Below, piece by piece: positions 4,427-54,026 of a DNA stretch of 64,000 bases; position 1 is the stretch's first letter, and each line of letters starts with the position of its first letter. Below the pieces are notes generated by a model. The model did no database searches and was not told the DNA's origin. It saw only the letters and a program-made list of their open reading frames with translations. A program made the position numbers and the translations under genes. Source of the stretch: Parcubacteria group bacterium Greene1014_15. GTDB lineage: Bacteria; Patescibacteriota; Minisyncoccia; Phycocordibacterales; VMGT01. The DNA lies in the NCBI GenBank assembly GCA_007376725.1, contig VMGT01000003.1, positions 4,470 through 68,469 on the forward strand, given 5' to 3'.

Positions 4427-5032
4427 ATGCTACAATATATGCATACTATCAGTAACTCTATGAATATGTGTAAAGAACATCCTCAACATAAACGCGGCAT
4501 AGGATTGTTTATGGTTATTATCATTATTGCAGTTCTTGCAATTTTGGCCGGTGTTGCCGCGCCCAAGTTTATGGCAACGAGAGAAACACGCGATACTGTC
4601 GTACAAGAGCCAGAACAGATGCAGCGTGAAGCAGATCCTGCAGTTGCAACAAAGGCGGCTTGTGAAGCAGCATGCCGCAATCAGTATGGTGGCAGCGGGT
4701 CCGCGGGATTTGATGCCTGTATTCGCGCATGCGGCGCCGGTGGGGTATTGCGTGAGGAAGCGGCGTGCGCATCACCCGGCCCTGCATGTCCTTCACCTCA
4801 ATCCCCCGTGTGTCATAATGGAAAATGGTATTGTCGAGAACATGTCGGAGAGGCCGCGTCAGGTTCGCGTGTATTTCCTGAAACAAACAACGCAACACTT
4901 AACTATCCGGCCGAAACCGCGCTCAAAGAAGCTGCGTGTGGTGAACCCGGGCTTGCCTGTGAGTCTCCCGCATCGCCGGAATGTAGTAATGGAAAGTGGG
5001 TTTGCATTGGGCCCGCAACGGGAGTGAATTGA
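4427..5032 (+). CDS. pilin-like protein with duplicated cysteine-knot modules
   Basis: N-terminus KRGIGLFMVIIIIAVLAILAGVAAPKF resembles a class III (prepilin) signal and hydrophobic helix but lacks Glu5. The C-terminal half holds two tandem 4-Cys modules (ACASPGPACPSPQSPVCHNGKWYC and ACGEPGLACESPASPECSNGKWVC). Confidence 0.5.
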   Translation: MLQYMHTISNSMNMCKEHPQHKRGIGLFMVIIIIAVLAILAGVAAPKFMATRETRDTVVQEPEQMQREADPAVATKAACEAACRNQYGGSGSAGFDACIRACGAGGVLREEAACASPGPACPSPQSPVCHNGKWYCREHVGEAASGSRVFPETNNATLNYPAETALKEAACGEPGLACESPASPECSNGKWVCIGPATGVN

Positions 5033-5035
5033 TTA

Positions 5036-5216
5036 GGGCTCGTTAAAAAATTAATTCCCAAAGATCGCGCACAATGCGCGATCAAATACGACTTGGCGCG
5101 GAATGAGCGAAACCAGGAGTTGTATTCCGATACAACGAGTGGTTTTGCGAGTGAGCACGAGTCGTAGATGACTGCACAGTGTGTGTGAGATTGGGAAGTT
5201 ATTTTTTAACGAGCTC
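5036..5216. repeat. MITE-like element family B copy 1 (about 180 bp with about 21-bp terminal inverted repeats)
   Basis: Termini CGTTAAAAAATTAATTCCCAA ... TTGGGAAGTTATTTTTTAACGAG. Internal palindromes GATCGCGCACAATGCGCGATC and TGTATTCCGATACAA. Near-identical copies lie at about 20696-20877 and, inverted, at about 25290-25478. Confidence 0.8.
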
Positions 5217-5266
5217 TTATTCTCCCAGACAACACCCCGCACGATTGTGCGGGGTGTTGTGGAAGT

Positions 5267-6472
5267 TTATGTTTGTTCAATGAATGTAAGCGCTTTGCCT
5301 TTTTTGCCCGCACGGCCAGTGCGGCCGATGCGGTGTATGTAGTCTTCGTGCGATGCAGGAAGATCGTAGTTGATGACGTGTGAAATGCTGTCAATATCGA
5401 GGCCTCGCGCCGCCACATCTGTTGCAACGAGAATCTGAATATGCGCGCGCTTAAACAAGTCGAGAGCCTTTTGCCGTTTTCCTTGAAGTTTGTTGCCGTG
5501 AATCGATTCTGCACGAAAGCCTTTTTGTGCAAGTATTTTTGAGAGCTTTTCAACACCGTGCTTTGTTCTTCCGAATATGAGCACCTTGCTGAACTCTGGT
5601 TTCATAAGAAGATTTTGCAGAACAATGAGTTTGCTCGTACCAAGAGGTACGCGAACAATGTCTTGTTCGATTGATGCTACGGTGTCACCAGTTTTTACAC
5701 TCACTCTGATGGGGTTGTGAAGAAATTCTCCCACGAGTCGTTCGATTTCCGGTGAAAACGTTGCGGAAAAAAAGAGCGTATGGCGCGGTGAAGGGAGGAG
5801 AGCGAGGATACGACGCATATCTTTGATGAAGCCCATATCGAGCATGCGATCGGCTTCGTCGAGAACTGCGGTGCGAAATTCTGAAAGATTGAGAGCTCTT
5901 CGCTCCAAAAGATCTTTGAGGCGTCCAGGGGTGCCAATAACAAATTGCGGTCTATTGCGGAGCTGTGAGAGTTGCTTTCCCATACTAGCGCCTCCGACGC
6001 AAACTGCGGCGTGGATGTTCAAGCGATAGGCGAACTCGTGAAGCTCCTCTGCGATCTGTCCTGCGAGTTCACGTGTCGGTACCATAATGAGAACGCGCTC
6101 CCGTGGCTGCGTGAGTATTTTGTGAATGAGAGGAATAAGAAAAGCGGCGGTCTTGCCGGTGCCGGTGTTTGCAATGCCGACGACGTCGCTTTTGCGTAGT
6201 ATATGTGCGATAGTTTTATCTTGAATTGGTGTCGGCTCTCGATATCCCTTTTGCGCAATCGCTTCTTTGAGGCGATTTTCTATGGGAAAGTCTGAAAAAC
6301 GATGAGTAGGAACGAACTGCTCAACTTTTTCTGGAGCGGTGGCTTTATTGATGAAACGCGTAATGTCAGCATGTTTAAGCTGTTTAATAGCGCGTTTTTG
6401 ATGAGCACGATTTGGATTTTGTCTAAAATTCGTACGGGCACCTGTTGTATGACGAAAATTTCTAGTTTGCAT
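5267..6472 (-). CDS. DEAD-box ATP-dependent RNA helicase
   Basis: Q-motif and Walker A region ANTGTGKTAAF. DEAD motif VLDEADRMLDMGF. SAT. Helicase C motifs VATDVAARGLDI and HRIGRTGRAG. Confidence 0.85.
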   Translation of the reverse strand: MQTRNFRHTTGARTNFRQNPNRAHQKRAIKQLKHADITRFINKATAPEKVEQFVPTHRFSDFPIENRLKEAIAQKGYREPTPIQDKTIAHILRKSDVVGIANTGTGKTAAFLIPLIHKILTQPRERVLIMVPTRELAGQIAEELHEFAYRLNIHAAVCVGGASMGKQLSQLRNRPQFVIGTPGRLKDLLERRALNLSEFRTAVLDEADRMLDMGFIKDMRRILALLPSPRHTLFFSATFSPEIERLVGEFLHNPIRVSVKTGDTVASIEQDIVRVPLGTSKLIVLQNLLMKPEFSKVLIFGRTKHGVEKLSKILAQKGFRAESIHGNKLQGKRQKALDLFKRAHIQILVATDVAARGLDIDSISHVINYDLPASHEDYIHRIGRTGRAGKKGKALTFIEQT

Positions 6473-6550
6473 TTCGAATGAGTTTGTATCAAGTAAGACT
6501 ACATTATATATTAAATTAGCCTTTTGTCAATCAATTTCGTGGTAACTGCT

Positions 6551-6775
6551 CACACCCTCGGAAAATCTCCCTCATTCCCCCTTTCACAAAGGGGGAAGTC
6601 GAACGCCTCTCCTCCCAAGAACTTCCCCCTTATGAAAGGGGGAATGAGGGAGATTTCAAAGAGGTTGGGAGGGATGTGAACTCCTCCCTTTTTGAAAGGG
6701 AGGATGGGAGGGATGTGAACTCCTCCCTTTTTGAAAGGGAGGATGGGAGGGATTTATTCATAGCTGTGAAAGCTT
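6551..6775. repeat. family A composite hairpin-module repeat array (REP or MITE-like)
   Basis: Two module types. A modules GGGAGGGATGTGAACTCCTCCCTTTTTGAAAGGGAGGAT occur in tandem. B modules are CTTCCCCCTTATGAAAGGGGGAATGAGGGAGATTT. Conserved ends GGGATTTATTCATAGCTGTGA and CACACCCTCGGAAAATC. Other copies lie at 22059-22137, 22789-22972, 49206-49395 and 53803-53936. Confidence 0.8.
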
Positions 6776-6849
6776 ACATTTCGTGAAATATGGCTAATCA
6801 TCTGTAGATACAGAGCATCCCCACGAACAACATGTTCGTGGGGATTGTG

Positions 6850-7643: not shown

Positions 7644-7683
7644 AATCGCCCCCGTTTTGTGAGAAAAAATTTTTAAGAACTTA

Positions 7684-7794
7684 CCTACTATCTAGTGCCT
7701 TGGCGAAATGTCCAATATTCATTCTAAAACTTTCATATTCTGCGGAAACATATTTTGTTTTGTTTTTTTTGAGGTTAGATAGTAGATAGGCTCT
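7684..7794. repeat. MITE-like element family C (short copy)
   Basis: Termini CCTACTATCTAGTGCC ... TTAGATAGTAGATAGGCTC match the TIRs of the copy at 28035-28214 and the half copy at 22722-22788. Confidence 0.6.
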
Positions 7795-8056
7795 GAACTC
7801 GACAATACGATACTATATAATAAATGTCAAGGATTTAGAGTGTAACCTCTCACACCTACCTTATTCAACAACAAACTTCGTCATATAAAGCAACTACCTC
7901 TACTACTATGAGGTATTCTGAAAGTGGGAGACGGAACGAATCGTCAATGGCTTCGAGCCACGCGCAATGACGGCTCTGTTACCGAGTCTTGTGGCAGGTG
8001 TGAGCAGATACTTTAGGGTTGCCTTTGTTGCAACTCGTGAGTAACATCAGACGTAT

Positions 8057-17852: not shown

Positions 17853-19436
17853 TTATGACGGATCGGGCAGTATCCATGTCGCAGACGGAGGAAATGTGTC
17901 GAAGACCACCTCGCGATGCGCTGTCCATGTTGCGATGATGGATTCTGGTGTGCCGATGCCTGCAGCGGTCGGACCGCAGGGGCCAAAGAAATGGTTTTGT
18001 GGCGCGCCTGTTGTTCGTGCGCGGAGGCCGACGTAGGTGGTGCCGTTTTTGGTTGCACCGAGGACCTTGCCAATGAATTCCTGATCGTTTGATACCACAG
18101 CTGCGGTGAGATGATGCGCTACGCGTTCAAGAATTTCGAGCATGGTATCGACTTGTTCATCGTTGTATTCGACGATCAACTGAAATGGTCCAAAAATCTC
18201 TTTTGTCAAAAGCTCAAACTGCTGTTCTACACAGAAGAGAGAAATTGGTACTGAAATCGCTGTCGGCTCGTAGGCGCCATAGCATGCGGGAATAGTATGG
18301 AGAGTAAGCGGGTTTCCCCCCCAATTCAAGCATGTTCCGTGAAGCGTCAGAATTTTTGCAATATGTTCGTAGATTTGTTCATTGTTCACAGATAGAAGTG
18401 GTCCAACAGTGAGATCACTCAAACTACGCCGCTTCGCGAGTTTCTTTAATGTAATCTCAAGTGTTATACTTTGCCATTTGTGCACAAACAAAAGCGACTG
18501 TGCGGAACATTTCTGTCCTGATGCGGCGTACGCGTCATGATCGCATTGCCATGCTATATACTCGAGATACTCATCCGGTACATCTCTTCCGATGATCTTC
18601 CAGTTGAATCCGGAGTCCTCGAGTTTTACTCGACCTTTCAAGGTTTGCATGACGTATTCGCCAACTTCTGACGAACCAGTGAATTGACAAAAATCGATAT
18701 GTCGCTCTGCTTCCTTAAGCAAGCGTCCCATATTCTCTCCACTGCAGTGGATGAGGTCGATATCAACAGTTGGCAATCCGCACGCGATGAGCAACCGTAT
18801 GAATTGCTCGGTGACAACAGAAACTTTCGAGTCGGATTTCACAAGAGGTCGGTTGCCGGTGAGAAGTGCTCCCATGATTTGCAGAGCTGGAATTTCGAGA
18901 GGGAAGTTGAACGGTGTGATGATGACGACTGCTCCATGCGGCCATCGGTAACCGTTACTTCTTTGTCCATCGTGATTTCCAGTCACCGAGAACCCGCGGC
19001 CAAAATGAAAACGTGGATTGTCTCCGGCGAAGTTGTAGAAAAAGTCGCGTGTAACTGTCACTTCTCCTATACATTGCGCATAAGATTTTGGCATGACGCG
19101 CTGGATTAGAGTTGCAAAATAATCCGCTATATCTGCCTGACTAAGCGCCTCTGCGACTTTTGCAGAAACTTTTCCGAGCATGTTGTAGCGCTCAATGTTG
19201 CGGTATGGATTGTGCAGACCGTAACTCGGCGTATTTTTCAACCCATCAATAAATGTTCCGAATTGTTCAGGAGGCGTATTGGGAACGATGAGCATGCTAT
19301 TGCCGGCCATTGGGTCAGGAAGCACACGTATATGCGGGCTCAATGTTGTCCAAAATTTTCCGAGAGATGTGTGCCATAGTTGCCTAGGATTGAAGATGTA
19401 CCTGCATAAAAGGAGTATGCTGTGCGAACAGGACAA
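17853..19436 (-). CDS. aldehyde dehydrogenase family protein (possibly 1-pyrroline-5-carboxylate dehydrogenase-like)
   Basis: ALDH catalytic Cys context GQKCSAQSLLFV. FTGSSEVG NAD-binding motif. Length near 500 aa. The true start may be the internal Met at 19310. Confidence 0.65.
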   Translation of the reverse strand: MSCSHSILLLCRYIFNPRQLWHTSLGKFWTTLSPHIRVLPDPMAGNSMLIVPNTPPEQFGTFIDGLKNTPSYGLHNPYRNIERYNMLGKVSAKVAEALSQADIADYFATLIQRVMPKSYAQCIGEVTVTRDFFYNFAGDNPRFHFGRGFSVTGNHDGQRSNGYRWPHGAVVIITPFNFPLEIPALQIMGALLTGNRPLVKSDSKVSVVTEQFIRLLIACGLPTVDIDLIHCSGENMGRLLKEAERHIDFCQFTGSSEVGEYVMQTLKGRVKLEDSGFNWKIIGRDVPDEYLEYIAWQCDHDAYAASGQKCSAQSLLFVHKWQSITLEITLKKLAKRRSLSDLTVGPLLSVNNEQIYEHIAKILTLHGTCLNWGGNPLTLHTIPACYGAYEPTAISVPISLFCVEQQFELLTKEIFGPFQLIVEYNDEQVDTMLEILERVAHHLTAAVVSNDQEFIGKVLGATKNGTTYVGLRARTTGAPQNHFFGPCGPTAAGIGTPESIIATWTAHREVVFDTFPPSATWILPDPS

Positions 19437-20666: not shown

Positions 20667-20695
20667 ACAACTGTAGAAAGCGCTGTCGTTCGGGT

Positions 20696-20877
20696 TCGTT
20701 AAAAAATTAATTCCCAAAGATCGCGCACAATGCGCGGTCAAATATGACTTGGCGCGGAATGAGCGAAACCCGAGTTGTATTCCGATACAACGAGTGGTTT
20801 TGCGAGTGAGCACGAGTCGCAGATGACTGCACAGTATGTGCGAGATTGGGAAGTTATTTTTTTAACGAGCCCTTATA
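20696..20877. repeat. MITE-like element family B copy 2
   Basis: Near-identical to 5036-5216 and in the same orientation. The annotated upstream start of the next ORF (20846) lies inside this element. Confidence 0.8.
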
Positions 20878-20908
20878 TGCGACAGCGCTTTCAAACAAGG
20901 AAAAAAGT

Positions 20909-22042
20909 ATGTCGACAGGCAATCTGTACCTTCCAAGTTTTTATAACCCATCTCATGCAGAGTTGTGGAACTATCATCCGGATGCCCGAGCGCTGTTTGA
21001 GTTCGCGAAAGAATATCGCGAGGAATGGAGCATCACCGCGGCGGCGTATGATGCGTTTAAGTTGCTCGTGTTGGGGATTGATTTGCAACGCGATTTCGGC
21101 CATCCGCTCGGATCGCTCTATGTCGGAGGCAGAAGTGGTACAGGGGCGATTGATGATAATCGCCGGACAGCAGAGTGGACCTACAAGAATCTCCCGCGTA
21201 TTACGAGATTCATGCCGACACTCGATACGCATACGACACTGCAGATATTCTTTCCTGGATTTCTGATAGACCAGAATGGAGAATTTCTACAGCCGCACGA
21301 CATGGTCACGGACGGTATGGATATCTTGCGGTTTGGAAAAACTGTCGGCAAGGCATACGCAAACCCTGCGGTCGCTGGAGTTCTCGCAAACGGAAACACA
21401 AAATGGATGCAAAAGCAGATCGAGCACTATTGCGCAGAACTGAACAAAGCGCAAGGTACACTCGGTAGTCCTGAAATGCGCAAATACATGCTCTATACGT
21501 GGCCGGAGCATTGCTTGCTTGGCGGTGAAGGACACAATGTGGTCGGAGTGATTCAGGAAGCCATGCTCTTTCACTCGTATGTACGCCATGCACTGCTTAC
21601 GCCTGAAATAAAAGGTGGAAATCCATGGACAGAAAATTATTCTGTTTTTTCTCCCGAAGTGCTCACGCGTTGGAGTGGCAAGCCGCTTGCAAGAAAAAAC
21701 AAGCGACTGATCAATCTTGTGTTGGGGTACGATGCTATTGTGGTGTTGGGGCAGGCAAAGAGTCACTGTGTTGCTTCTTCGATCTACTCACTTCTTGAAG
21801 AAATTGTTACAGTAGATCCATCTCTAGCGAAGAAAGTATACATTGTCGATGACTGCATGAGTTCCGTTGTTGTTCCGAATAGCGGCTATAACGAGAACGA
21901 CCCCGCATCTGGTCCACAGTATTTAGTTGACTTTACAGAAAAAGGAGACGAATACAACGAGTTGTTCCGCGAGTATGGCATGCATGTGGTGAAATCTACA
22001 GATGACATTGCAACATGGCCTGGCCTTGCACATTTAAATTAA
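20909..22042 (+). CDS. isochorismatase-family (cysteine hydrolase, nicotinamidase-like) protein
   Basis: VLGIDLQRDF (Asp), conserved Lys region, and IVVLGQAKSHCVASS (catalytic Cys). Start chosen at Met 22 of ORF 20846..22042 because AAGGA lies 8 nt upstream and the longer start is inside a repeat. Confidence 0.6.
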   Translation: MSTGNLYLPSFYNPSHAELWNYHPDARALFEFAKEYREEWSITAAAYDAFKLLVLGIDLQRDFGHPLGSLYVGGRSGTGAIDDNRRTAEWTYKNLPRITRFMPTLDTHTTLQIFFPGFLIDQNGEFLQPHDMVTDGMDILRFGKTVGKAYANPAVAGVLANGNTKWMQKQIEHYCAELNKAQGTLGSPEMRKYMLYTWPEHCLLGGEGHNVVGVIQEAMLFHSYVRHALLTPEIKGGNPWTENYSVFSPEVLTRWSGKPLARKNKRLINLVLGYDAIVVLGQAKSHCVASSIYSLLEEIVTVDPSLAKKVYIVDDCMSSVVVPNSGYNENDPASGPQYLVDFTEKGDEYNELFREYGMHVVKSTDDIATWPGLAHLN

Positions 22043-22478: not shown

Positions 22479-22721
22479 CGCTTTCTCTCTTCGACCTGCA
22501 CTATCACGTGCAGGTCGAACTATGTTATATGAGAGGAGATTAGGCTTTAAGTAAAAATAAGTTTCCTAATATCGGTTTCAGATTTTCGTGAGATTTGATT
22601 TTTTCGATTGAACAAATCTTGAGGCGTAGCGAGCTACGATAAAAGATTTGTGATTGAGAAAAAATTAAAGATTGCGGAAATATGGAAGCGAATCATGTCA
22701 AGTTATTAATCAACGAGGCCT

Positions 22722-22788
22722 TAGAACCCATCCAGTATCTGATGCAGTACTGAAATGATCAAAATTTGTTGCGAAAATTGTGTAACTA
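22722..22788. repeat. family C element, truncated left half
   Basis: CCATCCAGTATCTGATGCA...GAAATGATCAAAATTTGTTGCGAAAATTGTGT parallels the left half of 28035-28214. It abuts the family A array. Confidence 0.5.
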
Positions 22789-22972
22789 CACACTCCTCAA
22801 AATCCCTCCCATCCTCCCTTTCAAAAAGGGAGGAGTCCACATCCCTCCCATTTTCTTTGAAATCTCCCTCATTCCCCCTTTGATAAAGAGGGAGGTTCTT
22901 GGGAGGAGAAGCGTTCGACTTCCCCCTTTGTGAAAGGGGGAATGAGGGGGATTTTCCGAGGGTGTTGAGGGA
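22789..22972. repeat. family A composite hairpin-module repeat array
   Basis: CACTCCTCAAAATCCC end, A modules and B modules, ending GGGGGATTTTCCGAGGGTGTTGAGG. It is the reverse complement of the arrangement at 6551-6775. Confidence 0.8.
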
Positions 22973-23060
22973 TTACGTGCGTACGCTGCGTTCGTGTTGA
23001 CACTTCTATTTTTTAGTTTTACAATCAACTTGGATTTGTTTCCTTATATACTACAGAGGC

Positions 23061-24224
23061 TTGTTCGGGAGAACAATGATGAAAACAGTTGTGAGGCGTT
23101 TTCGTATTATAAAAACACAGTTTCTGCCAGCATCAGGCATCCCGTATAAAGATACACCGGAAGAATATTTAAAAAATAAAGACCGTCTGTTGTGCATGTA
23201 CCGCCACATGCGAATGATACGGCTGTTTGATGCAAAATCGTTTTCTTTGCAGCGGCAGGGAAGAGCGGGAACAAATGCTTCGACCGAAGGCGAGGAGGGC
23301 TATGCTGTTGGATATGCGGCAGCGATGACTGATCATGAAAAAGTGATTGGCGCAAAGCATATCCATGTGCCGCATTATCGTCAGAATGCGGCAATGCTTT
23401 GGCTCGACGAAGATGATAAAGAAGCCGCTCTCATGCGAATACTTCTTTATTGGGGAGGCTCAGAACTTGGCAACCTTGCCGCAAAGAATCGTCCGGATGA
23501 CCATCCGATGTGCGTGCCCATTGGAACACAAGTCGGACTCGCGCAAGGACGCGCGTTCGCGCTCAAGATAAGAAAAGAAAAGCGAGCAGTGGTTTGTATC
23601 TGCGGTGATGGCGCTACTTCGACAGGTGATTTCAACACCGGCATTAACTTTGCCGGAGCGCTCAAGGTGCCTCTTGTTGTGATTGTTTCGAACAATCAGT
23701 ATGCGATTTCTGTTCCGCGAGAACGGCAAACTGCTGCAGAAACGTTTGCACAGAAAGGAATTGCGGCAGGTATCCACTCGGAACAAGTTGACGGAAATGA
23801 CGTACTCGCTGTGTATCATGTAGTATATCAAGCGCTTGAACGTGCAGTGAAAAATTCCGAGCCGAGCTTGATTGAAGCAATTACCTATCGCCTCGGAGCA
23901 CATACGACAGCTGATGACCCGACAAAATATCGAGAAGACGCGGAAGTGGCGGCTGCGCGAGAGAAGGATCCCCTTCTTCGCATGCGTCGCTTGATTGATC
24001 ATCTTGGTATTTGGGACGAGGCAAAAGAGAGCGCTTACTGCGCGTGGGCAAAAGAGCGCATTGAAGAAGCAGTTAAGCGCTACGAAAATTATGTCAAAGG
24101 AAATCCGTTAACACTCTCCCAGCTCTATGATCATCAGGTGGCATCACCGCATTATACGCAAATCAGAGAGCGAGAGCTTCTGCTCGCATATCAAAAAGCA
24201 GTAGCAGAAGGAGAAAAAACATGA
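23061..24224 (+). CDS. 2-oxoacid (pyruvate, acetoin or branched-chain) dehydrogenase E1 component alpha subunit, TPP-dependent
   Basis: TPP-binding motif GDGATSTGDFNTGINFAGALKVPLVVIVSNNQYAIS. 4-bp overlap with the beta subunit gene. Confidence 0.8.
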   Translation: MFGRTMMKTVVRRFRIIKTQFLPASGIPYKDTPEEYLKNKDRLLCMYRHMRMIRLFDAKSFSLQRQGRAGTNASTEGEEGYAVGYAAAMTDHEKVIGAKHIHVPHYRQNAAMLWLDEDDKEAALMRILLYWGGSELGNLAAKNRPDDHPMCVPIGTQVGLAQGRAFALKIRKEKRAVVCICGDGATSTGDFNTGINFAGALKVPLVVIVSNNQYAISVPRERQTAAETFAQKGIAAGIHSEQVDGNDVLAVYHVVYQALERAVKNSEPSLIEAITYRLGAHTTADDPTKYREDAEVAAAREKDPLLRMRRLIDHLGIWDEAKESAYCAWAKERIEEAVKRYENYVKGNPLTLSQLYDHQVASPHYTQIRERELLLAYQKAVAEGEKT

Positions 24225-25300
24225 GTGAATCAGGCGGCGTTATCAACGTGCCAGTACACAGCACACGAGGAAAAGGCACACACACAATTCTTCAAGCCAT
24301 TAACGCCGCACTCGCGAAAGCAATGGAACTTGATGAAAATGTCGTTCTCATTGGCGAAGATGTTGGGAAGAATGGCGGGGTATTCTGCGTAACGGAGGGA
24401 CTTTGGGAAAGATTCGGTGATGACCGCATCAAAGATACGCCTCTTTCGGAGCAGGCAATTGTTGCAACTGCCACAGGTGCAAGTATGGGTGGAGTGAAAA
24501 TTGTCGTTGAAATACAATTTAGCGGGTTCAGCTATAGCGCGTTTGAGCATTTTGTGAGCCATACGGCTCGTATGCGGGCGCGCACACTCGGAACGCTTAC
24601 TTGCCCTCTCGTTGTTCGCATGCCGTATGGAAACCGTATACATGCGCCAGAACACCATTCCGAAGCAAATGAGGCATTCTTTGCGCACATACCGGCTCTT
24701 AAAATAGTGGTTCTTTCGACGGTAGAAAATGCGTACGGACTCACACTTGCCGCAATCAATGACCCTGATCCGGTCATTGTATTTGAACCGTCTGTTTTGT
24801 ATCGAAGCGTACGGGGGAATATTGTTGATGATGGAAAACCGATGGAGCTTGGCAAGTGCCGAGTGCATCAGGAGGGGAGCGACATAACGCTCATAACCTG
24901 GGGTTCGATGCTCTATGAATGTATTGATGCGGCTGCGCTTGTTGCAACAGAGAACATCAGTGTCGAAATTATTGACGTGCAGACGATCAGCCCCCTCGAT
25001 ATTGATACGGTTGTTGCATCGGTAAAAAAGACGGGACGATTTGCAGTTGTGCAAGAGGCTCCAAGTTTTTGTAGTGTTGCAAGCGAAGTTACCGCACAGT
25101 TATGGGAACGTATTTCCGAATACATACGAGCGCCATCGGTGAGGATAGCTGGAGCAAATGTCGGGATGCCTCTGTATCGGCGCGAAAACCTTGTTGTTCC
25201 AAATGCTCTGCGGATTGCTCTCGACATTCGTTCAATAATCAAAGTGGAGTTTCCTTTTGAAATGCCATTTGCGGCATACGCGGGGATGAGGGCTCATTGA
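24221..25300 (+). CDS. 2-oxoacid dehydrogenase E1 component beta subunit (transketolase-like)
   Basis: VVLIGEDVGKNGGVFCVTEGLWERFGDDRIKDTPLSEQAIVATATGASMGG. C-terminal transketolase-C-like domain. Confidence 0.8.
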   Translation: MSESGGVINVPVHSTRGKGTHTILQAINAALAKAMELDENVVLIGEDVGKNGGVFCVTEGLWERFGDDRIKDTPLSEQAIVATATGASMGGVKIVVEIQFSGFSYSAFEHFVSHTARMRARTLGTLTCPLVVRMPYGNRIHAPEHHSEANEAFFAHIPALKIVVLSTVENAYGLTLAAINDPDPVIVFEPSVLYRSVRGNIVDDGKPMELGKCRVHQEGSDITLITWGSMLYECIDAAALVATENISVEIIDVQTISPLDIDTVVASVKKTGRFAVVQEAPSFCSVASEVTAQLWERISEYIRAPSVRIAGANVGMPLYRRENLVVPNALRIALDIRSIIKVEFPFEMPFAAYAGMRAH

Positions 25301-25478
25301 AAAATAACTTCCCAATCTCGCACACACTGTGCAGTCATCTCCGACTCGTGCTCAATCGCGAAACCACTCGTTGTATCGGAATACAACTCAAATTTCGCTC
25401 ATTCCGCGCCAAGTCGTATCTGACCGCACATTGTGCACGATCTTTGTGAACTAATTTTTTAACGAGCCCTTACTCAGT
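25290..25478. repeat. MITE-like element family B copy 3 (inverted orientation)
   Basis: Reverse complement of the 5036-5216 element. Its terminal inverted repeat overlaps the last codons and TGA stop of the E1 beta gene. Confidence 0.8.
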
Positions 25479-28022: not shown

Positions 28023-28034
28023 CCAAAAGCATTA

Positions 28035-28214
28035 GAGCCTATCCACTATCTAATGCCTAGACGAAATGTTCAAAATTCGTTGCGAAAATTGCGTATTTTG
28101 AGGAAGCATAAGGGGAAGCTGACGAAAAATACATAATTTACAGCAGAATTTTGGACATTTCGGCAGGCAAGCTATATTTTGCTTTGTATTTTGCGGTTAG
28201 ATAGTGGATAGGCT
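28035..28214. repeat. MITE-like element family C (full copy, perfect 19-bp TIRs)
   Basis: GAGCCTATCCACTATCTAA ... TTAGATAGTGGATAGGCTC. Internal inverted repeat GACGAAATGTTCAAAA / TTTTGGACATTTCGGC. Confidence 0.75.
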
Positions 28215-28378
28215 CTTGGGTTTGCGAATGTTATTGGGTATATAATCACGGCGCTCGGAGAAAATGAAAGTAGAAACTTTCGCTTTCTCCTCGCTTGTGA
28301 TTATAGCAGAGATTTGGTTCGTTTGACACGATGTATAGCAAAGTTTTATAGTGCAGGCAGACAAGGACAAAAAAGGGG

Positions 28379-29082: not shown

Positions 29083-29628
29083 ATGTTGAGCCAATATACG
29101 AAGATTCGGATGATTATTGCAATCATTGTTTGTCTGTTTTTGATAGGTGTTTTTCTATTTGTCAGACGTGACAAGACGGTAAGAGTAGCAACCTTTGATG
29201 AATGCATTAAAGCGGGCTATGCGGTCATTGATTCGTTTCCCAAGAGATGTTTAGACAACGAGAGCATCGTTCATATCGAAGATGTTGGAAATATGGTTGA
29301 AATGCAAAATGAAATCCAAATCAATGCGCCTGAAAGAAACACGGTTATTACCGCTAATTTAGTTATTTTAGGGAAAGCTCGGAAAGATTGGTTCGTTGAC
29401 GGAAAAATTTCAGGATCGCTCGTTGATACAGAAGGTATAGTTCTTGGTCAGTTTGTTGCTGAAGCTGAAAAAGGAAATATAAACAAAACTCTAAGAGAAT
29501 TTAGCGGAAAAATGATATGGCGTTTACGAGATACAGACGCACTCAAGGGAAGTATTGTTTTGAAAAAAGGCAAAGTAACAGGCACAGGCAGTGAAATTAG
29601 AATGCCAGTGTTTTTGCGACCAGACTAA
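29083..29628 (+). CDS. hypothetical secreted or membrane-anchored protein
   Basis: N-terminal hydrophobic segment MIIAIIVCLFLIGVFLFV. Confidence 0.45.
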   Translation: MLSQYTKIRMIIAIIVCLFLIGVFLFVRRDKTVRVATFDECIKAGYAVIDSFPKRCLDNESIVHIEDVGNMVEMQNEIQINAPERNTVITANLVILGKARKDWFVDGKISGSLVDTEGIVLGQFVAEAEKGNINKTLREFSGKMIWRLRDTDALKGSIVLKKGKVTGTGSEIRMPVFLRPD

Positions 29629-29769
29629 TCTAGTACCCCGTCAACAAACTAATGACGGCTACGATCCAAGAATTTCGGCTGCAAATGGAGTTTCGGTTTT
29701 CAATGAATCTCGATTCATTTCGAACCTCATCCTCCATTTTCGCTCGAAATTTTTGAATCCTAACTCGTC

Positions 29770-31044
29770 TTACTGAACAACAATTTTCCCTTGCAAATCT
29801 TCGATCATTGTTGCACTTGAAACTGTATGCGTAAGTGTGATAACAGATTTGTTTGTTGCCCGAAGTGTGCTCACCCCATCGTCGCTTCCGATTGTTGAGT
29901 CAATAAACGTTATCTTGCTCTTGTCAAATGAATATGCGGCTTCCAAAAGACGTGATTTTTGAAATGTCGCCTCCGAGAAATCTTTTGTTTCAATAGTATC
30001 GATTATGCTGTCTTGTACAATTGCGACGGTATCCTCTGATTCGGTTATGGTATGAACAGCACTATTCTCGAGATAAAGTTTGTTAGTATGCTCGAGAAAA
30101 AAATTCCATGCCCGCACCGATGTATTGAGAAGGTGCAATTTGGCATCAACGAACTTCAATGTCTCATCTTTAAACAATCCGTTCATCAAACCACGGGCGG
30201 AAACAGTTTTTTGTTCCCATGGTCTTTGTGCATGAATATCAAGTGAAATGTTGTCAGTATTTCTGATAGTTATGTCTGATGCTGGCACGACACGAACATG
30301 CCACATTTTGACAGAGGAATTTGAAAGCGAGAGCACGGAAGAAATTTCAAATTCGTTTTTATTTGGAAAAACATACGCCGCTGTTGTTTGTTGTGGAAAT
30401 GCTTCATCCACACGAGCCCCTGTTCCAAAGCAAGGGTCGAGGAGGAGTTTTTTCGAGTTTTGTAGAGTGATTTCAGTGTTGTCGCATGTGGTCACATTCA
30501 CCGAGTCCCACGAGGTTATGTGTGCGCGACTTGAATCCATGAATTTCTGAAACGGGAAACAGCCGGCTGCTGTTGTTGTTATATCCTGTGCAGCAAGAGA
30601 AGCACTATCATGAAAATTCCAAGAAACGGTTTCTTCACACGAAACGGCAAGGATGGAATTTTGGAGAATGACTCTACTGTTGTCATACGCGTTGAGCGCA
30701 ATTATTTTACCAAGCGAACTTACGTGCTCAAATAAACTATTTCTAACGACAAGTGTCGCATTGTCTTTGAGTACGATGGATTCTCCGACAAGATAGTGTT
30801 GATTTTCGATAACGAGCTTCTGGTCGCCCCGCAGTATGATTGGTTTGTTTTCCACATCGATTCCTTCGTAGTCAGAGTTGTCATTTTTAACCGACCGATC
30901 CGCGGGAAGGGTGGAAGTTGTAACAGGCGGAACACGCGATACATACGTATGAGTGCGCAGACTTTTATAGACACCAATAAGAAAAGCAAGCGTACAGGTA
31001 ACGATGACGATCATCATGTATGTTTTTTTACTGAATATATCCAT
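29770..31044 (-). CDS. membrane-anchored protein with parallel beta-helix-like repeats
   Basis: N-terminal TM. Repeated xLxNS motifs (VVRNSLF, ILQNSIL, TLQNSKK, YLENSAV). Confidence 0.5.
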   Translation of the reverse strand: MDIFSKKTYMMIVIVTCTLAFLIGVYKSLRTHTYVSRVPPVTTSTLPADRSVKNDNSDYEGIDVENKPIILRGDQKLVIENQHYLVGESIVLKDNATLVVRNSLFEHVSSLGKIIALNAYDNSRVILQNSILAVSCEETVSWNFHDSASLAAQDITTTAAGCFPFQKFMDSSRAHITSWDSVNVTTCDNTEITLQNSKKLLLDPCFGTGARVDEAFPQQTTAAYVFPNKNEFEISSVLSLSNSSVKMWHVRVVPASDITIRNTDNISLDIHAQRPWEQKTVSARGLMNGLFKDETLKFVDAKLHLLNTSVRAWNFFLEHTNKLYLENSAVHTITESEDTVAIVQDSIIDTIETKDFSEATFQKSRLLEAAYSFDKSKITFIDSTIGSDDGVSTLRATNKSVITLTHTVSSATMIEDLQGKIVVQ

Positions 31045-33689: not shown

Positions 33690-33840
33690 AGAACACCGGA
33701 AGAAATGCGTAGGAAGAAATAGGAAGAAATGGGGACAGAGGAAGAAATGGGGACAGGCACAATTATTATCTCCTCCAAGGAGATAATAATTGTGCCTGTC
33801 CCCATTTCTTCAAGACCCATTTCTTCAAGACTAATGACTA
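33690..33840. repeat. long perfect palindrome (33-bp arms) with flanking GGAAGAAAT direct repeats
   Basis: GAAGAAATGGGGACAGGCACAATTATTATCTCC-tccaa-GGAGATAATAATTGTGCCTGTCCCCATTTCTTC. Upstream GGAAGAAAT occurs three times, mirrored downstream by CATTTCTTCAAGAC twice. Confidence 0.8.
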
Positions 33841-49146: not shown

Positions 49147-49205
49147 AAAAGCATCCATCGCTGTTTCGACAATGAATGCGCGATTTCATGTGATGCAGTA
49201 ACCCC

Positions 49206-49395
49206 TCACAGCTATGAATAAATCCCTCCCACCCTCCCTTTCAAAAAGGGAGGAGTTCACATCCCTCCCACCCTCCCTTTCAAAAAGGGAGGAGTTCACA
49301 TCCCTCCCACCCTCCCTTTCAAAAAGGGAGGAGAGGCGTTCCACTTCCCCCTTTACTAAAGGGGGAATGAGGGGGATTTTCCAAAGGTGTGCGGG
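49206..49395. repeat. family A repeat array (three perfect tandem 39-bp A modules plus a B module)
   Basis: TCACAGCTATGAATAAATCCC end. Three copies of TCCCACCCTCCCTTTCAAAAAGGGAGGAGTTCACATCCC. B module ...CTTCCCCCTTTACTAAAGGGGGAATGAGGGGGATTTTCCAAAGGTGTG. Confidence 0.85.
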
Positions 49396-49500
49396 GTTAC
49401 AGAATGCACCCACCCTTGACTAAATTAAATGCTTATGCCACTCTATGTCGAGTAGATGTGACCTTTTTTCACTCACCTATACCCAACACGGAGGTGTTCG

Positions 49501-53735: not shown

Positions 53736-53763
53736 AGAATATGCACACATGCGCCACATACTG

Positions 53764-53795
53764 CCGCAGATACTTTTGTATCTGCGGCAATTTTG
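53764..53795 (+). terminator. intrinsic terminator
   Basis: CCGCAGATAC-tttt-GTATCTGCGG followed by CAATTTTGT. Confidence 0.65.
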
Positions 53796-53802
53796 TACCT
53801 GC

Positions 53803-53936
53803 TCACGCTCCTCAAAATCCCTCCCACCCTCCCTTTCAAAAAGGGAGGAGTTCACATCCCTCCCACCCTCCCTTTCAAAAAGGGAGGAGCTTCCCCTGGT
53901 TTCCCCCTTTTGCAAAGGGGGAGAAAGGGGGATTTA
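53803..53936. repeat. family A repeat array (two A modules plus a B-like module)
   Basis: CACGCTCCTCAAAATCCC end. Two copies of TCCCACCCTCCCTTTCAAAAAGGGAGGAG. B-like module TTTCCCCCTTTTGCAAAGGGGGAGAAAGGGGGATTT. Confidence 0.8.
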
Positions 53937-54026
53937 GAAGAGCCCTATTGAAGAGTGACAGTGTACGCAATTTTTAGTTGACATAATTTAAAAAAACTTT
54001 TATAAATACAGCAGACGTACTTCAAA

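Follow-up and report, generated by a model that had tools for sequence, protein, structure and literature searches.

The same C/G-rich modules are common to five intergenic loci of the window, the whole 64-kb stretch of DNA analysed here, and the question is what kind of repeat they represent and how they move. The first-pass annotation had described them as dispersed composites of hairpin modules, MITE-like or REP-like and not CRISPR. The modules are present at all five loci: the 21-mer hairpin CCTCCCTTTCAAAAAGGGAGG occurs in 9 exact copies against 0 expected (100 shuffles), and for the B hairpin and the two end motifs, too, counts greatly exceed chance expectation. Copy pairs share 87-98% identity across 52-117 nt, and the C-rich hairpins of the window all lie within these loci. 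An early doubt, that the modules might not fold, is settled by predicted structures much more stable than those of shuffled controls (z -4.1 to -9.5), with -121 kcal/mol for c1 (z -9.5), -96.9 kcal/mol for c4 (z -7.4) and a z of -4.1 for the DNA fold of c5.

These repeats are a family of MITEs, and neither REP elements nor a CRISPR array. With a probability of roughly three in four, they are small non-coding transposable elements with IS66-type ends and 8-bp target duplications (TSDs), filled with C/G-rich hairpins stacked in variable number. The loci had been placed correctly in the earlier description, but the true spans proved longer, and the TIRs, the 8-bp TSDs and a sixth element had been missed (Table 1).

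Table 1. Copies of the repeat family in the window, with their termini, interiors and flanking duplications
Copy	Position	Strand	Length or state	Termini	Interior	Flanking 8-mers
c1	6542-6777	-	236 bp, full-length	GTAAGCTTTCACAGC... and ...GGTGTGAGCAGTTAC	2 A units + inverted B' hairpin + B hairpin	6534-6541 and 6778-6785, perfect 8-bp TSD, ATTTCGTG
c2	22051-~22145	+	truncated or degenerate	left terminus GTATCATTTCACAGC kept	one A hairpin + half B hairpin, then remnant ...GATGTGAGAA	no TSD recognisable in flanks
c3	22782-22976	+	195 bp	GTAACTACACACTCC... and ...GGTGTTGAGGGATTAC	1 A unit + degenerate inverted B' + B hairpin	TSD no longer recognisable in flanks
c4	49198-49400	+	203 bp	GTAACCCCTCACAGC... 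and ...GGTGTGCGGGGTTAC	3 perfect 39-bp A units (49222-49333) + B hairpin	GTGATGCA and AGAATGCA, 5/8 match
c5	53795-53966	+	172 bp	GTACCTGCTCACGC... and ...GAGTGACAGTGTAC	2 A units + B-type hairpin	53787-53794 and 53967-53974, perfect 8-bp TSD, GCAATTTT
c6	7842-8011		170 bp	GTAACCTCTCACACC ... GGTGTGAGCAGATAC, as in family	unrelated to other copies, without hairpin modules	7834-7841 and 8012-8019, TTTAGAGT / TTTAGGGT, 7/8

Termini and target duplications

The full copies are bounded by imperfect TIRs of the form 5'-GTA(A/C)-N4-5-(T)CAC(A/G)C, which are found at both ends of c1, c3, c4, c5 and c6, and the motif GTA-N5-TCACRC, expected 0.6 times, is found 6 times. Adjoining the TIRs is a duplication of fixed length that exactly abuts the termini in c1, c4, c5 and c6, matching at 8/8 positions in c1 and c5, 7/8 in c6 and 5/8 in c4, where the chance of a perfect 8-mer match is 1.5e-5 per element. 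Since c6 shares these termini but has another interior, the ~15-nt termini, and not the hairpins, define the mobile unit. The elements measure 170-236 bp and are dispersed over six loci in the 64 kb, every one intergenic, and no ORF attributable to them was found at these six loci. Short-read contigs end within c1, c3, c4 and c5; such breaks inside four elements are expected of a multi-copy repeat, which answers the concern that the copies might be unique to the window. The claim that the repeats are MITE-like and not CRISPR is thus borne out by the TIRs, the 8-bp TSDs, the missing coding capacity, the dispersed copies and the lack of unique spacers; a CRISPR array was rejected on the grounds that the units follow one another directly in the same orientation (period 39, with the 'spacer' part included in the 100% identity) and number at most three per locus.

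Members of the IS66 family have TIRs of 20-30 bp starting with GTAAGCG and 8-bp direct repeats (PMC11946415), and captured IS66-family elements generate 8-bp direct repeats (PMC3281130). ISDge4 of Deinococcus geothermalis, an IS66-family element of the ISBst12 group, bears the TIRs GTGACTACTCAGCA / GTAACTGCTCAGCA and an 8-bp direct repeat (PMC12898284). The ends of the elements studied here start with GTAAG/GTAAC (c1), GTAAC/GTAAT (c3), GTAAC/GTAAC (c4) and GTAAC/GTATC (c6), so that GTAA-type ends, from which c5 deviates (GTACC/GTACA), and an 8-bp TSD were both counted towards an IS66 assignment. One element end reads GTAACTGCTCACACC and another GTAAGCTTTCACAGC; the end GTAACTGCTCAC equals the first 11 nt of the ISDge4 TIR GTAACTGCTCAGCA, and another begins GTAAGC, as compared with the consensus GTAAGCG, a likeness to IS66 that rests on ~11-15 nt of terminus together with the length of the TSD. 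To our knowledge, GTAA ends combined with a duplication of 8-9 bp are unique to IS66 among the IS families of the ISfinder table.

Judged from these ends, the transposase would be of the IS66 family, probably of its single-ORF ISBst12 group. Insertion sequences of that group are ~1.4-1.9 kb in length. The elements resemble them in their imperfect TIRs and 8-bp target duplications and differ in having no transposase gene, in their short length and interior of hairpin modules, and in the one copy (c5) that begins with GTAC. No transposase, IS66-family or other, was detected among the ~35 ORFs scanned in the window, nor was a RAYT, and an autonomous partner is therefore inferred. The only IS seen nearby, to the left of the window in assembly L103, was rejected as the parent since it belongs to the IS3 family. 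A 26-mer from the right end of an element had no match in the JGI metagenomes, and a plasmid search with c1 and c6 returned no informative matches.

The REP/RAYT connection proposed earlier fares poorly against the same evidence. Palindromes of the REP/BIME or REPIN kind, spread by a RAYT (Y1 HUH) transposase via single-stranded hairpins and perhaps serving as binding sites for host proteins, would be in keeping with strong folds, with units that are each a short, G+C-rich, imperfect palindrome, and with the inverted pairs and variable mosaic arrays at gene ends that are known from BIMEs and REPINs; the free double hairpins of other phyla described below are likewise similar in architecture to REP doublets. 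REPs, however, have neither TIRs nor TSDs and go together with a RAYT gene, whereas here 8-bp TSDs and GTAA-type TIRs, both foreign to REP/REPIN mobility, are present, the conserved GTAG-type 5' tetranucleotide is absent beside the hairpins, no Y1_Tnp/RAYT match was obtained among the ~35 window ORFs, and c6 has the same ends with no palindromic units. An origin as REP-like palindromes is accordingly very improbable.

Placement, orientation and possible cis-acting roles

The elements lie between upstream 3' hairpins and downstream -35 boxes. Their description as sitting immediately after terminators holds cleanly for c5, where the 3' part of the terminator of the upstream gene (53762-53789 plus ATTTT) forms the left copy of the TSD, and not for the others, which lie 19-260 nt past a 3' hairpin without a T-run; c2 starts 8 nt past the stop codon of its upstream gene. 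On the promoter side, a 12/12 match to a sigma-70 promoter (6530-6503, minus strand) lies 3 nt past the TSD of c1, a match to TTGACA-17-TACAAT (22997-23025) stands 20 nt downstream of c3, and a promoter-like site (7830-7802, minus strand) is found 11 nt outside the left end of c6. The copies had been said to occur in both orientations, which is true of the plus strand, where c1 alone is reversed, but relative to the flanking genes all 5/5 copies are co-oriented, a bias that is only suggestive (two-sided p = 0.06).

A role as terminator or RNA stabiliser had also been proposed. No hairpin followed by a T-run, as an intrinsic terminator would have, was found in the sense orientation of the elements, and the six terminator-like sites are confined to the antisense strand, where every junction of A units reads GGGAGGGATGTGAACTCCTCCC then TTTTT. 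Canonical G-quadruplex motifs number five in the whole 64 kb; all are GGGAGGGTGGGAGGG, three in c4 and two in c5, on the minus strand. Taken together with the uniform co-orientation and the placement between a 3' hairpin and a promoter, these antisense sites and G-quadruplex motifs could be read as signs of cis-acting structures selected by the host, be they orientation-specific terminators or insulators, stabilisers of mRNA 3' ends, or G-quadruplex/i-motif switches. This explanation is unlikely: TIRs and TSDs account for the origin of the elements without any host function, module content varies at each locus and one copy is fragmentary, close relatives are without elements at the syntenic E1 operon, sense-direction hairpins are never accompanied by a T-run, and an orientation bias at n=5 may reflect tolerance and not function.

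Variation among related assemblies

Tandem Repeats Finder reports a period of 39 at both c1 (6661-6753; 2.4 copies, 98% match) and c4 (49222-49333; 2.9 copies, 100% match), the latter corresponding to the three perfect 39-bp tandem units already recognised in the first-pass annotation. The variation in module number that was noted there between loci is also seen between assemblies of the same population, which at two loci are short of a single 39-bp unit, namely two in assembly L093 against three here for c4, and one in two independent assemblies against two here for c1, differences that could be an assembler's collapse of the tandem repeat. The length of c3 is the same in four other spanning assemblies, and the parts of it contained in L078 (whole) and L079 (3' 43 nt) are also identical. 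All near-identical assemblies that span a locus (four for c2/c3 plus the partial L078 and L079, and two or three each for c1, c4 and c5) carry the element there, and no empty site was recovered. A paralogous stretch at 28029-28095 was rejected as an empty site, its homology stopping before the insertion point and its right flank being different. The close relatives at ~80% protein identity have neither modules nor termini in 23 kb, with intergenic DNA too diverged to align. The host lineage, labelled Parcubacteria by the depositor, is poorly sampled, as homologues of one protein fall from 99% to ~84% and then to <50% identity. Its source populations are represented by the MAGs GCA_007376035.1, GCA_007375765.1 and GCA_007379045.1 and by the ENA assemblies ERZ27284375-380.

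The whole is probably best explained by IS66-type non-autonomous elements moved in trans. The elements would be non-coding derivatives of a DDE insertion sequence of the cut- or copy-and-paste kind, mobilised by a transposase presumably encoded elsewhere in the genome, and their insertions would persist in a narrow neutral strip between the upstream gene's 3' hairpin and the downstream gene's -35 box. Between co-directional genes, only the orientation that provides no hairpin-plus-T-run terminators in the sense direction would be retained. The interior would be cargo, consisting of stacked 'arm + hairpin' units (AAATCCCTCCC-A-CCCTCCCTTT-CAA-AAAGGGAGG) and their mirror form (CCCCCTTT-loop-AAAGGGGGAATGAGGGGGATTT), and unit number may shift through replication slippage or unequal recombination among the perfect 39-bp direct repeats.

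The hairpin unit in other phyla

The MITE family is itself ordinary selfish DNA of a known sort; its hairpin unit nonetheless recurs almost unchanged in many phyla. In the species-representative genome set the exact 21-mer hairpin was found at 73 loci, and the adjacent stem arm is directly copied within ~15 nt in 51 of 76 occurrences of the 21-mer, against ~1% expected. The unit of hairpin plus arm is nearly identical in at least 22 assemblies with at least six phylum-level labels (Gamma- and 'Delta'-proteobacteria, Nitrospirota, Chloroflexi, Ignavibacteria/Bacteroidetes, Patescibacteria and Actinomycetota), and the 32-mer that includes the arm was recovered from 10 contigs of the JGI metagenomes. 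In one Thiotrichaceae MAG there are no fewer than 26 copies, and the 24 compared by eye look near-invariant over a core of ~125 nt and variable in their flanks. These cross-phylum copies are without the GTA-N5-TCAC termini. The possibility that these hosts are relatives of the present organism, misassigned in binning, was rejected, since one conserved protein reached at best 49% identity in tblastn.

Searches for a known identity gave little. At gathering thresholds, Rfam 15 had 0 matches in the window; scanned permissively, c3 and c4 produced only sub-threshold noise of miRNA-type hairpins and a Moco score of 29.7 against 36 bits, and nothing in Rfam overlies the related hairpins at 18 loci of other phyla. 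The 21-mer had no match in IMG/VR and showed no sign of phage origin, a tRNA or tmRNA origin was considered and none was detected, and a literature search by sequence words for the hairpin unit yielded irrelevant matches only.

One tentative reading of this distribution holds that the hairpin unit is an independent tiny element, usually paired as a double hairpin of 75-95 nt, which spreads or persists by itself across phyla and has colonised the IS66-type MITE or been captured by it, so that the MITE would be a vehicle; the unit itself might act as a structured RNA or ssDNA, be bound by a protein, or move as a tiny element in the manner of the cyanobacterial small dispersed repeats (SDRs). Its near-exact recurrence with the arm in 22 assemblies of many phyla and in the JGI contigs, the lack of these termini in hosts unrelated to the organism of the window, and the near-invariant core amid variable flanks in the Thiotrichaceae MAG (by eye) all point in this direction, as does the structure of c1 and c3, in which a complete double hairpin (B'-linker-B) seems to have been inserted in the loop of an A hairpin, while the termini of c6 function without hairpins. 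The window itself, on the other hand, has no hairpin unit outside the TIR-bounded elements, and the free double hairpins gave no TSD or presence/absence polymorphism. No Rfam family or literature match supports such an element, and the unit is of low complexity, with a CCTCCC/GGGAGG pair resembling Shine-Dalgarno and anti-Shine-Dalgarno sequences. Some matches are plain terminators, and together with the low complexity this means that part of the cross-phylum spread could be convergence.

It is a doubtful step further to regard the 'arm + hairpin' unit (AAATCCCTCCC-A-CCTCCCTTT-CAA-AAAGGGAGG) and its mirror, usually joined as a double hairpin of that length, as an undescribed class of ultra-small element that is spread or maintained independently of transposon ends, with the MITE as one carrier and with a conserved structural or protein-binding function. 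The mirror-symmetric design of C-tracts and G-tracts would permit a hairpin, a three-way junction, a pyrimidine-motif triplex and a G-quadruplex/i-motif, all of them read from the sequence and one, the G-quadruplex motif, also covered by a scan.

Comparison with known small repeats

Among described systems, the BOX elements of Streptococcus pneumoniae (boxA-boxB(n)-boxC), which have been named 'MITE-like' (PMC3184786), are similarly modular, dispersed and intergenic, with fixed ends, a variable tandem inner module of ~40-45 bp and strong predicted secondary structure. They share no sequence similarity with the present elements and are without a clear TSD or IS family, unlike the IS66-type ends and 8-bp TSDs seen here. 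The classical comparison systems are the bacterial MITEs Chunjie (Geobacter uraniireducens) and Nezha (cyanobacteria). Chunjie is a non-coding element of variable length (178-235 bp) with TIRs and direct repeats; its fold energy is -98 to -130 kcal/mol, and its insertion sites are A+T-rich and intergenic (PMC3184786; PMC10969869). In size and fold energy, compared by description, it is near-equal to the elements of the window, but its 21-bp TIRs and 9-bp direct repeats differ from their 8-bp duplications and GTAA-type ends.

A further likeness concerns the hairpin unit. Elhai and colleagues, in Genome Research in 2008, reportedly described cyanobacterial SDRs as tiny hairpin repeats nested in MITEs and in their own copies. 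By this description, the SDRs resemble the present unit as very small hairpin-forming repeats nested in MITEs and in themselves, and differ from it in their hosts and sequences.

Significance

The elements would document non-autonomous transposition of the IS66 type, which has rarely been described for this family. In practical terms, they break short-read assemblies, they flag where the gaps between terminators and promoters lie in the genome, and the number of their 39-bp units appears to be a VNTR-like character that varies between populations. Of broader interest is the cargo, whose hairpin unit of ~35 nt is near-exact across phyla and includes the window's only G-quadruplex motifs. If the unit turns out to be either an element in its own right or a conserved structure, it would constitute a new class of small bacterial repeat.

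Termini and classification of the family A elements

All five intergenic loci assigned to family A in the first-pass annotation contain the hairpin modules described for them. The A-hairpin 21-mer, CCTCCCTTTCAAAAAGGGAGG, has nine exact copies in the window, where 100 dinucleotide-preserving shuffles predict none, and the counts of the B hairpin (TTCCCCCTTT-loop-AAAGGGGGAA) and of both end motifs are also far in excess of chance. C-rich hairpins with a perfect 7-bp stem, sought throughout the window, were confined to these loci, and the identity between copies from different loci is 87-98% across 52-117 nt. Tandem Repeats Finder assigned a 39-bp unit to two stretches: 49222-49333, with 2.9 copies that are 100% identical, and 6661-6753, with 2.4 copies (98%).

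Read outward from the coordinates first assigned to them, the elements extend further. Both ends of the full copies form an imperfect inverted repeat with a 5'-GTAA or GTAC start and TCAC(A/G)C 8-9 bases in, and the window contains six instances of GTA-N5-TCACRC where 0.6 would be expected. A terminus scan also recovered a sixth element, c6, whose interior is unrelated to family A and bears no hairpin modules. The 8-mers immediately outside the element ends are direct repeats, perfect in two of the five full elements and matching at 7/8 in another; with a chance probability of 1.5e-5 that all eight bases agree at a fixed position, these target-site duplications (TSDs) cannot be chance. [quoted passage not shown] The MITE-like half of the original description is thereby upheld, as is its exclusion of CRISPR arrays, while its REP half is given up: REP and REPIN elements were rejected because TIRs and TSDs are present and no REP-associated tyrosine transposase (RAYT) was found, approximately 35 ORFs from the window yielding no Y1/RAYT protein against Pfam and NCBIfam.

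Features of the window (c1-c5, family A copies; c6, element found by its termini; rc, reverse complement)
Feature	Position	Ends (left; right)	Flanking 8-mers (match)	Neighbouring signal	A units or length: window; other assemblies
c1	6542-6777	GTAAGCTTTCACAGC; GTAACTGCTCACACC (rc)	ATTTCGTG / ATTTCGTG (8/8)	3 nt from 12/12 match TTGACA-16-TATAAT, 6530-6503 (-)	2; ERZ27284380 2, ERZ27284378 1, ERZ27284375 1
c2 (fragment, internal deletion)	22051-~22145				length unchanged in four spanning assemblies; parts present in L078, L079 identical
c3	22782-22976	GTAACTACACACTCC; GTAATCCCTCAACAC (rc)	no direct repeat left	20 nt from TTGACA-17-TACAAT, 22997-23025	as c2
c4	49198-49400	GTAACCCCTCACAGC; GTAACCCCGCACACC (rc)	GTGATGCA / AGAATGCA (5/8)		3; ERZ27284378 2
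c5	53795-53966	GTACCTGCTCACGC; GTACACTGTCACTC (rc)	GCAATTTT / GCAATTTT (8/8)	upstream, textbook terminator 53762-53789 plus ATTTT, its tail being the TSD; other side, TTGACA-17-TATAAA, 53978-54006 (read by eye)	2; L100 2, one contig end enters a third unit
c6	7842-8011	GTAACCTCTCACACC ... GGTGTGAGCAGATAC	TTTAGAGT / TTTAGGGT (7/8)	11 nt from TTGACA-17-TATTGT	
A-hairpin 21-mer, exact copies	6683, 6722, 22086, 22813, 49233, 49272, 49311, 53828, 53867				
Second MITE-like family	5033-5220 (+), 20689-20876 (+), 25286-25470 (-)				
Gene units between the two families	helicase 5267-6472, ORF 20846-22042, E1 operon 23079-25300				
CCTATCCACTATCTAA ... TTAGATAGTGGATAGG block	7681-7794, 22718-22784, 28029-28216				
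34-nt inverted repeat	33741-33811				
Inverted repeat with its flanking tandem repeats	33721-33831				

Members of the IS66 family carry 20-30-bp TIRs with a GTAAGCG start and 8-bp direct repeats (PMC11946415), and trap-captured elements of this family made 8-bp direct repeats (PMC3281130). ISDge4 of Deinococcus geothermalis, a single-ORF member of the ISBst12 group, has the TIRs GTGACTACTCAGCA / GTAACTGCTCAGCA and an 8-bp direct repeat (PMC12898284). The right end of c1 has its first 11 nt in common with ISDge4, and the other end, GTAAGC..., fits the IS66-family consensus. GTAA-starting termini with 8-bp duplications are an IS66-family signature; no other IS family of the ISfinder table is known to combine GTAA ends with 8-9-bp duplications. 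No transposase was found among the approximately 35 window ORFs searched against Pfam and NCBIfam; because the autonomous partner is absent from the window, we infer a probable IS66-family (ISBst12-like) origin from the ends, the parent being unobserved, rather than demonstrate it. In another assembly (L103, 51-1149), an IS3-family IS with HTH_Tnp_1 and rve ORFs occupies the end of a contig, about 2.7 kb to the left of the window's first position.

Hairpin cargo and folding

Read with the C-rich arms first, an element consists of the left TIR, AAATCCCTCCC-A, one to three 39-bp units (CCCTCCCTTT-CAA-AAAGGGAGG-AGTTCAC-ATCCCTCCC-A), a linker (AGGCGTTC(G/C)A), the B hairpin (in canonical orientation CTTCCCCCTTT-loop-AAAGGGGGAATGA-GGGGGATTTT) and the right TIR. 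Every hairpin comes with a direct copy of its own outer arm (CCCTCCC-A-CCCTCCC...GGGAGG, mirrored as CCCCC...GGGGGAATGAGGGGGAT). One compensatory change, T:A to C:G, separates the A and B stems, and the B loops differ (GTG, CAT, ACT, TGC) with the stems retained. In c1 and c3 an inverted B hairpin (B') and B form an inverted repeat with 37-nt arms, placed within the would-be loop of the last A hairpin. Whole elements folded as RNA reach -97 to -121 kcal/mol (z = -7.4, -5.9 and -9.5), and c5 folded as DNA gives z = -4.1; the termini are paired in three of four folds, both ends being unpaired in that of c1. These hairpins are cargo and not recognition sites, because c6 shares the ends yet has no hairpins. 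Pneumococcal BOX elements offer the closest likeness for a modular body with a variable internal unit, and Chunjie, with 21-bp TIRs and 9-bp direct repeats (PMC3184786), is similar in size and fold energy. A known RNA family was rejected for the family A elements.

Genomic setting

All six elements are intergenic: each follows the 3' hairpin of one gene and closely precedes a promoter-like site of the next. The C-rich strand is the sense strand of both flanking genes in 5/5 family A copies. A role as termination structures, proposed earlier, finds no support in these copies, as none has a hairpin followed by a T-run in the sense direction; it is on the antisense strand that each A-unit junction reads GGGAGGGATGTGAACTCCTCCC then TTTTT, with six terminator-like sites flagged. 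Canonical G-quadruplex motifs are present in the 64 kb only as five copies of GGGAGGGTGGGAGGG, on the antisense strand of c4 and c5. The simplest hypothesis is that only the orientation permitting read-through would be tolerated (n = 5, p = 0.06).

A second MITE-like family, unrelated to family A, comprises copies of approximately 190 bp that are 90-97% identical, with TIRs of approximately 27 nt, (A/T)AGGGCTCGTTAAAAAAT(T/A)A.TTCCCAA. Its 20689 copy lies within a hairpin loop (GAAAGCGCTGTCG ... CGACAGCGCTTTC), and three gene units each lie between a family A element and a copy of this second family. A conserved intergenic block with the inverted pair CCTATCCACTATCTAA ... TTAGATAGTGGATAGG recurs, 76-79% identical, in three regions that are divergent or upstream; it has the look of an operator, and paralogous loci may share it as a binding site for one regulator. 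Between convergent genes, short tandem repeats (18-bp x2, 15-bp x2) flank an inverted repeat whose 34-nt arms match perfectly across a 3-nt spacer.

Unit number and host population

The window was compared with other assemblies of the same population, with flanks 99.3-100% identical to it. The number of A units appears to differ between assemblies at c4 and c1; c2 and c3 show a constant length in the four assemblies that span them. Lengths differ by whole multiples of 39 bp, which is what slippage between perfect direct repeats would produce, but short-read assemblers can collapse such arrays. Six Logan contigs begin or end within c1, c3, c4 or c5, the usual behaviour at multi-copy repeats.

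Near-identical contigs occur in the MAGs GCA_007376035.1, GCA_007375765.1 and GCA_007379045.1 and in ENA and Logan assemblies. The proteins of these three MAGs have an NCBI organism name beginning 'Parcu...'. Under this label, which is taken from the NCBI names, the gene content is unusual: among the genes are those for a PDH E1 component, homogentisate dioxygenase, many sensor kinases and an ECF sigma factor. Relatives at approximately 72-84% protein identity contain no family A module or terminus in the 23 kb compared, and the right-end 26-mer has no match in JGI metagenomes; the MITE family is therefore lineage-restricted. Assemblies also differ in structure elsewhere in the window. At 19368 the window is without 175 bp that are present in five other assemblies (compare L074, 596-769), a gap that takes away the start and upstream region of an aldehyde dehydrogenase gene. 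In the 29.6-kb intergenic region (29589-29770) a segment of approximately 27 nt, CTAGTACCCCGTCAACAAACTAATGAC, is inverted and moved between assemblies, and L078 is without 152 bp at 28096-28248, a small structural polymorphism like that inversion.

The hairpin unit in other phyla

The 21-mer alone is found at 73 loci in a one-genome-per-species collection, some of them plain terminators. A direct copy of the adjacent arm lies within approximately 15 nt in 51 of 76 occurrences (approximately 1% expected), and many occurrences form the same double hairpin, AAATCCCTCCCAA-CCTCCC..GGGAGG-spacer-CCCCC..GGGGGAT-TAA-GGGGGATTT. The 51 arm-bearing occurrences belong to 22 assemblies spread by their labels over many phyla: Gammaproteobacteria (including Acinetobacter and Moraxellaceae), 'Deltaproteobacteria'/Syntrophus, Nitrospirota, Chloroflexi, Ignavibacteria/Bacteroidetes, Patescibacteria and Actinomycetota. 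A Thiotrichaceae MAG holds at least 26 copies (blastn, 91-97% identity across approximately 150-200 nt), with a near-invariant core of approximately 125 nt and more variable flanks (24 copies, judged by eye), and 10 JGI contigs carry a 32-mer that includes the arm, most of them at a single conserved intergenic site. The hosts are unrelated to the window's organism, and none of the cross-phylum copies has GTA-N5-TCAC termini. Searched by sequence, these units match no Rfam family and nothing in the literature, and the hairpin unit has no occurrence in IMG/VR.

Several individual loci show further features. In six Flavobacteriia loci (L017, L025, L047, L049, L054, L061) and one of Gracilibacteria (L044), AACCCTCCG is followed by a small hairpin, CCA, the same 21-nt hairpin and AGCTTTT. 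The small hairpin has another sequence in each genome with its pairing kept, and the whole resembles a separate structured RNA or terminator motif that has undergone compensatory changes. At L086 (~373-404) and L092 (~4927-4958) an insertion starting AGACTGTGTCGTAATAGGG, possibly a hairpin-targeting mobile element, splits the second hairpin in its loop within an otherwise conserved double-hairpin locus. The unit apparently lies in a coding region, possibly polA-like (by eye), in a Patescibacteria MAG (L018, ~5188-5208), and adjoins or enters ORF 3' ends in Ignavibacteria (L014, L063, L022), recalling the in-frame position of Rickettsia palindromic elements. On the Acinetobacter plasmid NZ_CP090068.1 (L080, 2950-3040), two units stand tail-to-tail (..GGGGGATTTAGGGGGATTTT - spacer - AAAATCCCTCCCAACTTCCC..) beside an unannotated ORF with a GGCTTTGTTGCACAAA end in front that recalls IS903-group IS5-family elements.

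The low-complexity, SD/anti-SD-like character of the sequence leaves room for convergence as the source of this spread, and the cross-phylum units showed neither a TSD nor a polymorphism to establish mobility of their own; that they constitute an independent class of element is considered unlikely. The similarity across phyla nevertheless suggests that the cargo is itself a small element or structure of wide distribution, and it is in this cross-phylum hairpin unit that the remaining novelty lies.
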